From Escherichia coli (lineage in GTDB: Bacteria; Pseudomonadota; Gammaproteobacteria; Enterobacterales; Enterobacteriaceae): 64,000 nt of DNA. Location: the NCBI RefSeq assembly GCF_044324875.1, contig NZ_CP172185.1; one strand, 5' to 3'. Position 1 is the stretch's first letter, and each line of letters begins with the position of its first letter. The notes under the pieces are model-generated. The model saw nothing but the letters and a program-made list of their open reading frames with translations. It was not told the DNA's origin and did no database searches. Made by a program: the position numbers and the translations under genes. Below are positions 51,691-54,790 of this stretch, in pieces.

Positions 51691-52549
<859 letters not shown>

Positions 52550-52786: not shown

Positions 52787-52999
52787 TCATTCCTTATGCT
52801 CATGACACTCATCATCAACACCTGCTACCTCATCCCTTTGCCTACCGCCTTTTACCTTACGCACCGGAAATTGCTGCCGCTCCAGATATTGCTCCACCGC
52901 TTCGCGTAAAATTGCAGATCGTGAAACCTTACGCCAGCCCCGAAGCTTGTTCAGCCGTTTAATTGCCTCGTCTGATAAATGAAGAAAAACCGTACTCAT
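52787..52999 (-). CDS. small ribbon-helix-helix (CopG-like) protein, yiiE/yiiF family
   Basis: ORF 52787-53035; MSTVFLHLSDEAIKRLNKLRGWRKVSRSAILREAVEQYLERQ from the internal ATG; which of yiiE or yiiF it is cannot be decided from memory. Confidence 0.65.
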   Translation of the reverse strand: MSTVFLHLSDEAIKRLNKLRGWRKVSRSAILREAVEQYLERQQFPVRKVKGGRQRDEVAGVDDECHEHKE

Positions 53000-53094
53000 C
53001 ACCATCGCCACCCCCTCACATATATCTCTCGTCAATGCATGGTGCGAAAATTACGCCGAAAATTTAATTAATAAAAGCTGATTTTTGCATCTTG

Positions 53095-53253: not shown

Positions 53254-53724
53254 ATGGATGCTGATAATATATTATATTCAGGAATGTTTATTTTTTTGAT
53301 CGGTTTTGCATGGATCTTCGGTTGCATCATCCGCATGGTGTACCCGAAAAAAGTCAGCGTCTTTACCGCTCCAGGCTTTAGCGGCGCTGTTACCCTGCCA
53401 AAAGCAGGTGACTATGCGGTGACAATTACACTCCCGCTCAAAAGCGGTATTGCGTCATATCTCCCTGGCGCGAGCTTTTATTCAGCACAGTTTACCATTA
53501 CCGCCTCTGAGAGCCAGCAAGCAATAGCACTACAACGTAAAGGAAAGTGGGGAGCTAATTCTTATAACAAGGATTTTATCGGTAATAAAAGCCATATTAT
53601 TGGGGTATTTAATTGCCCTCAAGCCACGGAGAATTACGACATAGTTTGCACTAATCCACAGATTATTCACGACACCTATAAAGTGGAAATCATAAACTAT
53701 ATCTCTCTCTCGGAAAAAGAATGA
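53254..53724 (+). CDS. hypothetical membrane-anchored protein (156 aa)
   Basis: SD aaggatgag; one N-terminal hydrophobic helix (MFIFLIGFAWIFGCII) then a ~120-aa Ser/Thr/Ala-rich domain; AT-rich. Confidence 0.55.
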   Translation: MDADNILYSGMFIFLIGFAWIFGCIIRMVYPKKVSVFTAPGFSGAVTLPKAGDYAVTITLPLKSGIASYLPGASFYSAQFTITASESQQAIALQRKGKWGANSYNKDFIGNKSHIIGVFNCPQATENYDIVCTNPQIIHDTYKVEIINYISLSEKE

Positions 53725-53832: not shown

Positions 53833-54141
53833 TCAGTGCTGCCACCAACCGGTCTTTACTTGGTAGTAGTAGTAATTTTGCGGATAACAGTCCGGGAACC
53901 AGACAATTCCTTGTGGATCATCCCCCTTCATCACCCGATAGCATTGGCGTCGATCATCGGCGCGGCGACGAAGAGTAGTATAAAGCCGTTTCCACTCATG
54001 ATCGCCCGGTGTACTGTAGTTTACCCAACACTCCATTGAAGGGTGACGCCATTTACCTGTCAGTGTTGGGATCCCTGAATGATTATGCAGCTTCGCTTTA
54101 CCATTACGATCCCTATCTTTACGCGTATTAAGCGTGGACAT
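53833..54141 (-). CDS. hypothetical protein (102 aa, Trp/Tyr/Cys-rich)
   Basis: Good SD (aggag) 8 nt upstream of the ATG at 54141; no recognisable family. Confidence 0.45.
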   Translation of the reverse strand: MSTLNTRKDRDRNGKAKLHNHSGIPTLTGKWRHPSMECWVNYSTPGDHEWKRLYTTLRRRADDRRQCYRVMKGDDPQGIVWFPDCYPQNYYYYQVKTGWWQH

Positions 54142-54202
54142 TTTTAGTCTCCTGTTAAGAGTTCTAAAAATGTGCTTCCTTAAAATAGTTCATCATTTTC
54201 CC

Positions 54203-54415
54203 TTAATTCGCATAGCGTGCTTTTGCTCGAATTTCCGATACGCGGGGACCATTATGATAGCGTCGATGCCCACACATCCAACAAGAACAAATACAGGGAG
54301 TACGAAAGCAAATACCTGATGCTTTTTTGCTTCCATCGCCTGCAGTGCGATAACGGCAGCGGATTTTTTTTAATCGCGCCATATGATGGCGACGTTCAGC
54401 ACGATTACGGGTCAT
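54203..54415 (-). CDS. hypothetical small basic Cys-rich protein (70 aa)
   Basis: ATG at 54415 preceded by an aggag SD lying inside the hairpin repeat; Cys-rich C..C.C.C....C.H cluster; uncertain (+ strand ORFs overlap). Confidence 0.35.
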   Translation of the reverse strand: MTRNRAERRHHMARLKKIRCRYRTAGDGSKKASGICFRTPCICSCWMCGHRRYHNGPRVSEIRAKARYAN

Positions 54416-54420
54416 AGTAA

Positions 54421-54525
54421 AACTCCTGAGCAGGCGGCACTATGCCGCTTTCATAGGAGTTCTGAATGCTGGTGCTTTCTGTATGGCATAACCATGCCTC
54501 TAACGGTTAAGTGCCTGCAGCACAT
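54421..54525. repeat. ~105 bp hairpin-containing repeat, copy A (overlaps the 3' end of the higA-like gene)
   Basis: ~90% identical to copy B at 56238-56342; contains an imperfect long hairpin. Confidence 0.6.
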
Positions 54526-54790
54526 GTTGCGGATCATTGGCAATCGCTCGCAGCAAAGCCTTTGCAGGCCCAGTCGGTGAACGTCGCCCCTGCTCCCAGT
54601 TACGCAACGTGTCTACGCTTACGGAAATAAGTTCGGCAAATTTAGATTGTGACAACCCTGAAGCGCGGCGTATTTCTTTGATTTTCATAGCATCAACTTC
54701 AAAAGTCCGTGAAGGGTGTCGCGTTCCTTCAATAATTTCATTCATCTGGGCCATGCTGTGAGTCAACCGCTCAAAAAGTGCCTTATCCAT
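54500..54790 (-). CDS. XRE-family HTH antitoxin (HigA-like)
   Basis: 96 aa; C-terminal HTH (IRRASGLSQSKFAELISVSVDTLRNWEQGRRSP); start codon abuts the upstream toxin stop. Confidence 0.75.
   Translation of the reverse strand: MDKALFERLTHSMAQMNEIIEGTRHPSRTFEVDAMKIKEIRRASGLSQSKFAELISVSVDTLRNWEQGRRSPTGPAKALLRAIANDPQHVLQALNR

Follow-up and report, generated by a model that had tools for sequence, protein, structure and literature searches.

A two-gene accessory cassette from mobile DNA in Escherichia coli with short upstream reading frames and hairpins at its translation starts

In the com-mom system of phage Mu, the start site of mom is concealed in a hairpin, which the zinc-finger protein Com opens. 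According to Lovett's work, the leaders of cat-86 and cmlA (and erm) reportedly contain a short open reading frame (ORF) that reads into a hairpin sequestering the Shine-Dalgarno (SD) sequence of the resistance gene. In Escherichia coli, the toiL upstream ORF (uORF) controls the topAI-yjhQ toxin-antitoxin (TA) transcript, where a structure occluding the ribosome-binding site (RBS) is relieved via the uORF (PMC12121999). Here, two adjoining small genes, named A and B, are described from a 64,000-nucleotide (nt) stretch of E. coli DNA (NCBI RefSeq assembly GCF_044324875.1, contig NZ_CP172185.1), which as a whole is called the window and to which all coordinates refer unless a comparison locus (L001 and so on) is named. 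The best explanation overall, which on balance appears somewhat probable, is that A and B form a small operon derived from mobile DNA and encoding two basic proteins, the translation of each being gated by a structured leader. What makes this explanation uncertain is mostly the function of the proteins and the question of whether the leaders act as sensors.

Like those of cat-86, cmlA and erm, the A and B leaders have a short, SD-bearing ORF overlapping the 5′ arm of a single hairpin, which pairs the downstream SD or start codon; they differ in that their peptides show no relation to the known ones and the genes under control do not confer resistance. Some mini-ORFs of the A/B system are 2 codons long (MR and MT; peptides are written here without the stop codon that ends each), which fits termination-reinitiation better than stalling inside the peptide. 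As in Mu com-mom, a small, basic, Cys-containing protein (A) is encoded directly upstream of a gene with a hairpin-sequestered start, but A has no Pfam match and is not a member of the Com family, and B genes keep the hairpin without A. The combination of RBS occlusion with a uORF, and the small accessory nature of the regulated genes, are shared with toiL-topAI (PMC12121999), but there is no sequence relation to the A/B leaders and A-B is not a demonstrated TA pair. The HigB/HigA-type pair next to the cassette (higB-like plus NadS, a helix-turn-helix protein; 54500–55102) lies on the same strand, adjoins A-B and is of similar size, but neither A nor B has a toxin or antitoxin domain, and each module is found without the other.

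Gene A (54203–54415, minus strand; 70 residues, 6 Cys) was defined from the ORF list, the family alignment and the ratio of nonsynonymous to synonymous substitution rates (dN/dS), and gene B (53833–54141, minus strand; 102 residues, 6 Trp and 8 Tyr) from the ORF list, a profile search and dN/dS. Direct reading of the sequence places an SD about 7 nt 5′ of each ATG, CAGGAGTTTTACTATG for A and AGGAGACTAAAAATG for B, confirming the two co-directional small genes with good SDs that had been described in an earlier note on this DNA. The pair is located within the variable fdhE-fabY interval of E. coli, with yiiE (CopG family) on one side and the higB-like/nadS TA pair plus an alpha/beta hydrolase gene on the other, and PGAP labels both E. 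coli genes as hypothetical proteins.

Alleles of Escherichia from the window, L001, L002, L019 and L021 (the last 76% identical) were compared for dN/dS. In their own frames, the values were 0.10–0.18 for gene A, with 0.36 for one pair, and 0.05–0.19 for gene B; an outlier of 0.81 came from one near-identical allele pair that shows just 4 differences. Between the window and L021, the most diverged alleles, four of the five other frames gave 1.0–1.9, and minus-strand frame 1 gave 0.25 (A) and 0.32 (B), yet contained 5 and 10 stop codons. Genes A and B are under purifying selection and are real genes. The overlapping plus-strand ORFs, from which the earlier note had drawn doubt about the coding assignment, are considered non-coding because the selection signal is confined to the A and B frames, the other frames being at a dN/dS of about 1 or above or riddled with stops. 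A 47-residue hydrophobic ORF lying in another frame inside A (54193–54336) was rejected as a by-product: neither its start codon nor its sequence is conserved in diverged alleles, and its frame shows no purifying selection. A single frameshift that would restore a longer known gene, a check suggested in the same note, was not found; no longer protein family was matched, and all homologues of A and B are 45–138 residues long, the longest (P0130, 138 residues) being an A-B read-through. The exact gene A protein is present on at least 1000 E. coli contigs and the exact 102-residue gene B protein on 55, with 92-residue B alleles dominating, and intact alleles of the cassette are far more numerous than broken ones.

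Just upstream of gene A lies a 41-nt palindrome (54421–54461, minus strand), which is matched by the covariance model R1 at 54413–54466 with 77.5 bits. The lower stem of this hairpin, AACUCCU/AGGAGUU, pairs the SD, the GGAG of A standing in the 3′ arm; above it follow an internal loop and an upper stem, GCGGCA-UAG-UGCCGC. The location of the SD inside a hairpin, as read in the earlier note, therefore stands, while its description as a generic repeat does not, since the element is the conserved 5′ leader of the A family. An upstream ORF encoding MPYRKHQHSELL (54451–54489, minus strand) has its own SD, runs through the 5′ arm of the hairpin and stops at −38; an alternative AUG at 54495 lies 4 nt past the nadS stop. 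Equivalent ORFs encode MTYRKQRHSELM in L021, MMNRKFQYSELM in L023 and MASRKQRHSELM in L025, and four leader types (Escherichia, Klebsiella, Vibrio and Pantoea/Citrobacter) have a short SD-bearing upstream ORF that enters the 5′ arm.

The same two-tier design is found before the A genes of many lineages with differing stem sequences, and at least four upper-stem types were distinguished. By a crude criterion (a minimum of 3 of the 4 SD bases pairing with upstream sequence, in a hairpin domain with a folding energy of −12 kcal/mol or lower), the SD was occluded in 26 of 49 A leaders versus 21 of 160 control ORFs of the same loci (Fisher, 4 × 10−8). A covariance model trained on Escherichia and Salmonella A leaders was searched against 441 kb; it also picked out, each in precisely the expected place, the leaders of Klebsiella indica, Citrobacter, Pectobacterium and Xenorhabdus. 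In the resulting alignment, 84% of cells were paired compared with 40–46% in slid controls, and the covariation score was 0.135 compared with 0.086 for shuffles. In the Pantoea/Citrobacter/Vibrio leader type, the upper stem is 11 bp long, includes four compensatory pairs and many G-U pairs, and is capped by a conserved GAAG loop; these features favor folding of the sense-strand RNA. Alignments were made for each leader type and by covariance model; MAFFT plus RNAalifold over all leader types lost the stem register. No Rfam family matched 53833–54520 at E ≤ 1.

A second copy of the palindrome is present at 56238–56278. It belongs to a 98-nt direct repeat (54421–54518 and 56238–56335, 88% identical) flanking the 1.8-kb hydrolase/higB-like/nadS module; both copies begin with the A-leader hairpin, and the second (minus strand) is followed by no gene. 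This suggests that the hydrolase/TA module inserted into, or recombined at, the A leader and thereby duplicated the 98 nt. An origin of the hairpin as a repetitive extragenic palindromic (REP) element was rejected, since the A-leader element has merely 1–2 copies per E. coli genome, all at this locus. An attC origin was likewise rejected, the Vibrio leader lying inside the cassette, adjoining but separate from the VPR attC. On a Desulfobacterales contig (L053, 3948–4120, minus strand), three weak tandem matches to the covariance model (17–18 bits) were found far from its A gene and may represent an unrelated hairpin repeat array.

Between A and B, a mini-ORF encoding MMNYFKEAHF (54164–54196, minus strand) has an SD, AAGGGA, that overlaps the A stop codon. 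The final codons of this mini-ORF, together with its UAG, make up the 5′ arm of a hairpin over the B initiation region (54138–54173, minus strand; z −3.8), which pairs the B start codon: the outer stem ACAUUUUUAG/CUAAAAAUGU includes the B AUG, and the inner stem CUC/GAG pairs part of the SD. Three compensatory pairs support this hairpin across Escherichia, Salmonella and Citrobacter. When mini-ORFs were defined as having at most 14 codons and an SD-like motif and as ending 23–29 nt before the B start, one of 2–14 codons was found before 13 of 16 B genes, which are not all independent and represent about nine lineages, versus 3 of 395 control ORFs (p ~2 × 10−19). Solo or distant B genes share the mini-ORF design, examples being MFIHALVIS, MEAAMT (or MT), MT and MDIF. 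The mini-ORF and hairpin are thus a trait of the whole B family and not of the A-B junction, because solo B genes have both.

A related sequence was observed in the A leader of Vibrio parahaemolyticus (L010, 4907–5000), which contains a mini-ORF encoding MNYFKVSRYR. Its SD and first five codons, AAGGGAcaatATGAATTATTTCAAGG, are near-identical in DNA to those of the Escherichia mini-ORF preceding B, AAGGGAaaatgATGAACTATTTTAAGG (window 54164–54205). Among 71 loci, the pattern ATGAAYTAYTTYAAR was found nowhere beyond these two leaders.

These features lead us to propose the following mechanism. Transcripts in the window would be fed by the TA promoter at 55131–55104, which is the only strong promoter-like site in the region and is proposed as the source because no such site directly precedes A; at L021, a promoter-like site precedes the A leader. 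The hairpins would be melted by ribosomes translating the short upstream ORFs, whether these ribosomes run through (coupling or reinitiation) or pause at the ORF ends (attenuation). The opened hairpins would expose the SD and AUG, licensing translation of A and then of B. The chain in the window would run from the nadS stop to the upstream ORF, to A, to the mini-ORF and to B. Synthesis of the A and B proteins would thus scale with, or respond to, what happens at the ribosome.

Several observations weigh against this explanation. The covariation in the A leaders is modest and the alignment was fitted to the covariance model, and many of the leaders compared are kin to one another, which means that there are fewer independent cases than the counts imply. 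Opening by a uORF is not universal, as no upstream ORF lies within 110 nt in the Edwardsiella-type A leader. Start-codon pairing alone is weakly enriched among B genes (13 of 16, versus 207 of 401), and no promoter-like site was found directly before A in the window. For the proteins, AlphaFold models of A and B are poor (predicted local distance difference test score, pLDDT, of 64) and gave no fold match, and the fold and sequence searches support no biochemical activity for either.

Gene A is a member of the phage T5 gp055 (T5.055)/phrog_4499 family on the basis of a PHROGs profile match (E = 8 × 10−14, 52.9 bits, residues 3–67). Membership says nothing about the activity of A because the family has no known function. 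A tblastn search with gene A returned 446 phage records, in which the protein is always annotated as hypothetical; most are of T5-like phages, and jumbo phages of Erwinia and Serratia account for others. The family was present in all T5-like phages sampled. Bacterial homologues occur in Gamma- and Betaproteobacteria, Desulfobacterales and one acidobacterial metagenome-assembled genome; homologues in other genera and in phages are full-length with 40–55% identity. The family motifs are an N-terminal RAxRRHH..R.K..R..Y and a block TPCxCSCWMCG(H/N)xR, which in the window read RAERRHH..RLKK and TPCxCSCWMCGH; the N-terminal helix of A is rich in Arg and His. T5-type proteins share RAxRRHH..R.K and TPCxCSCWMCG with gene A but differ in having an extra acidic C-terminal tail (about 100 residues in total) and no B gene after them. 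No paper was found in the literature for the gene A accessions, T5.055, phrog_4499 or the sequence motifs, and a paper on T5 growth inhibitors does not mention gp055.

Across an alignment of 32 sequences, R9, R14, R19, G34, C43, S44, C45, C48 and R52 of A are invariant, while C41 is variable and one relative (L071) has three Cys only (TYCSCPMC). The small zinc ribbon that the earlier note had suggested for the Cys cluster was rejected: there is a single C-x-C-S-C-x-M-C block instead of two separated CxxC knuckles, A and 32 relatives matched no Pfam or NCBIfam profile at E up to 10, zinc-finger and zinc-ribbon profiles included, and the low-confidence AF2 model of A is helical with no beta-ribbon. 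The cluster probably forms a metal-binding site.

Two adenine runs were observed within gene A, an A8 homopolymer at 54364–54371 (minus strand; codons L15-K16-K17-I18) and an A6 run at 54323–54328. Database variants of A are frameshifted at one run with the frame restored at the other, for example KKSAAVIALQAMEAK instead of KKIRCRYRTAGDGSKK, and may reflect sequencing errors or real slippage.

Gene B is a member of a separate, unannotated family, which is defined here from its sequence; an exhaustive profile search recovered 60 cluster representatives at E ≤ 1 × 10−3. The family has an N-terminal MSxFNxRKDR..G motif, and toward the C-terminus W.RL.TRPRR, G(A/D)DPDG..W and, at the extreme end, KP..YY(W/Y); looser forms of these family motifs are W.RL.TT.RRA or W.RL.T.RRR, GxDPxG..W and P..YY[YW]. 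Alignment revealed a stop-loss extension of the window allele (53833–53865, minus strand), in which codon 93 is TAC and not the TAA of the 92-residue E. coli consensus. This adds 10 residues (QVKTGWWQH after an extra Y), and YYY is no longer terminal. Relatives of gene B gave nothing significant against PHROGs, and a relationship between A and B was excluded by profile-profile comparison.

Searches of A, B and 70 relatives against Pfam, NCBIfam and PADLOC gave nothing useful, and PDB sequence profiles matched neither A nor B nor their relatives. The lack of resemblance to known families reported in the earlier note was borne out, apart from the match of A to the uncharacterized phrog_4499, and the homology and structure search proposed there yielded homologue families but no fold match. 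The proteins have isoelectric points (pI) of 11.1 (A) and 9.6 (B). From their high positive charge and their conserved aromatic residues or Cys content, A and B most likely bind nucleic acid, either RNA or the ribosome.

In E. coli the cassette is accessory: of 5426 complete genomes, 1268 have it and about 1576 others carry a scar only, the leader and first 54 nt of A beside nadS, with the breakpoint at the A8 run of gene A (window 54362–54500 versus L018; e.g. O45:H2 FWSEC0003); the scar is a deletion that removed B and most of A. B directly follows A on the same strand in Escherichia, Salmonella, Klebsiella, Kosakonia, Citrobacter, Edwardsiella and one IMG/VR contig, and in Mixta it lies 212 nt downstream of A. 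Among 44 genomic A loci, B follows A at about 9, and at about 35 there is no B within 4 kb; B also occurs without A in other contigs, and no conserved neighbor of A besides B was found in 44 genomes. In Vibrio, an integron cassette consists of the leader and A only, and in Pantoea, A stands at the integrase-proximal ends of islands. Neighborhoods of A and B contain Dnd genes, SNF2 helicases, AbiH, HipAB, PIN or Gp49 toxins and an HNH nuclease. L021 has the cassette but no TA pair at the corresponding chromosomal position, L018 has the TA pair but no cassette, and Salmonella and Edwardsiella carry the cassette without the higB-like/nadS pair, indicating that the cassette is independent of the adjacent TA pair. 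A-B is best read as a small accessory operon from mobile DNA that encodes two unrelated, strongly basic proteins, and the likeliest setting for them is conflict between host and mobile elements.

In Salmonella and a related contig (L005 1–4134, L071 5420–8662 and L006/L007 1–4377), A-B was observed beside an SNF2-helicase/AAA/S8-peptidase set or beside Dnd genes, the latter comprising DndB together with PAPS reductase-like and SMC-like genes; the opposite side of A-B is occupied in L006/L007 by RadC and a CbtA/CbeA pair. A 3.6-kb record labelled 'Salmonella phage S.Kent 1-2-1' (L004, OR851001.1, UNVERIFIED_ORG) carries an HNH_2 nuclease gene and encodes A and B proteins that nearly match those of Salmonella chromosomal islands (against L005, one difference in A and none in B); it is probably bacterial DNA and not phage. 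A 2285-bp segment (L014 3656–5940, L015 and L016) is 99.9% identical between metagenomic contigs with different flanks. On it lie a solo B preceded by AT-rich sequence, a perfect palindrome of 17 bp that resembles a terminator, and an IS3-family element with inverted repeats at 4291 and 5893; the segment may be a mobile unit or an assembly artefact.

A further-reaching reading, which we consider possible but rather doubtful, holds that A and B are unrecognized, widely mobile families of small basic proteins whose leader ORFs are sensory and which respond to translation stress such as antibiotics, phage takeover or starvation. Phages, integron cassettes and genomic islands would be the carriers, and the proteins would act on the ribosome or RNA. 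If so, the near-identical SD and MNYFK leader found before A in Vibrio and before B in Escherichia would represent a portable sensor module.

Unlikely, though less so than the readings that follow, is a toxin-antidote or effector-immunity arrangement in which A is harmful at high dose, B neutralizes it and the relay couples the synthesis of B to that of A. The harm done by A would explain why its SD is always occluded. The genes are small, adjoining and co-directional with a translational relay between them, they lie among TA and defence genes, frameshifted variants of A exist, and one known TA operon is governed by a uORF with RBS occlusion (PMC12121999). However, pairing is not obligate: A lacks a B partner at about 35 of its 44 genomic loci, as it does in lytic phages and in integron cassettes with one gene, and B stands alone elsewhere. 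No toxin or antitoxin domain of PADLOC, Pfam or NCBIfam is matched, and the same gating leader on solo B genes shows that gating is not specific to a toxic partner.

It appears improbable that the hairpins are nothing more than transcription terminators or insulators between cargo genes, with incidental short ORFs and constitutively translated proteins. The A hairpin of the window is followed by UUUU and sits between nadS and A, and such palindromes often stand between genes. Against this, the SD is kept in the 3′ arm across many lineages despite differing stem sequences, most versions of the hairpin lack the U-tract, the G-U pairs point to sense RNA, and the mini-ORF position is strongly non-random (13/16 versus 3/395).

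Less probable still is a role of A as an RNA-binding translational activator or autoregulator in the style of phage Mu Com, which would bind the leader hairpins and control both A and B. Such a role would suit a small protein that has a Cys cluster and an Arg-rich N-terminal helix and whose gene immediately precedes one with a sequestered start site; in addition, each leader type of A has conserved upper-stem loops. Nevertheless, A resembles neither Com nor any RNA-binding family, the mini-ORF and hairpin are kept by solo B genes in the absence of A, and no motif common to the A and B leaders was found beyond the SD/anti-SD pairing.

The proposal that A and B are extra parts of the higB-like/nadS TA operon, a link implied in the earlier note, is largely refuted. 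It draws on the shared orientation of the genes directly downstream of the TA pair, on the upstream ORF beginning 4 nt past the nadS stop and on the TA promoter being the only strong promoter-like site, but is contradicted by the occurrence of each module without the other (L021, Salmonella and Edwardsiella for the cassette; L018 for the TA pair) and by the TA/hydrolase module itself, which looks like an insertion bracketed by the duplicated A leader. That the region is a degraded gene remnant, as also raised there, or non-coding DNA with chance ORFs is refuted, because the overlapping plus-strand ORFs, the frameshifted and truncated database variants and the roughly 1576 scar-only E. coli genomes are set against low dN/dS (0.05–0.19) in the A and B frames only, full-length homologues in other genera and phages with none longer, and intact alleles that vastly exceed broken ones.

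A and B are already in databases as hypothetical proteins and count as ordinary accessory cargo. What is new is that both families lie beyond the curated libraries, that A-B recurs as an operon and that conserved uORF-plus-hairpin leaders absent from Rfam precede the genes. The genes are very common, being found in about a quarter of complete E. coli genomes, in T5-like phages and in Vibrio integron cassettes, and both families keep an uncommon control design, a short upstream ORF plus a hairpin over the RBS, across a wide evolutionary distance. If the leaders are sensors, as in antibiotic-sensing attenuators or toiL-topAI, they would define an undescribed class of stress- or infection-responsive genes, and they offer simple reporters with which to find the signal.

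Other features were observed around the cassette. At 56408–58261 (minus strand), the window has an intact 617-residue ORF with a CKSAKDRT (CX5R phosphatase-like) motif and no Pfam or PDB sequence match; E. coli references carry a transposase and an incomplete hypothetical protein at this position. A 156-residue ORF convergent with B (53254–53724, plus strand) has an N-terminal hydrophobic segment and no family match; its E. coli homologue is annotated as a 179-residue hypothetical protein, and few genomes cover that part of the query. Upstream of yiiE (52787–53035, CopG/ribbon-helix-helix), an IS3-family transposase gene (OrfB-like, 240 residues) is located at 51795–52517 on the plus strand.

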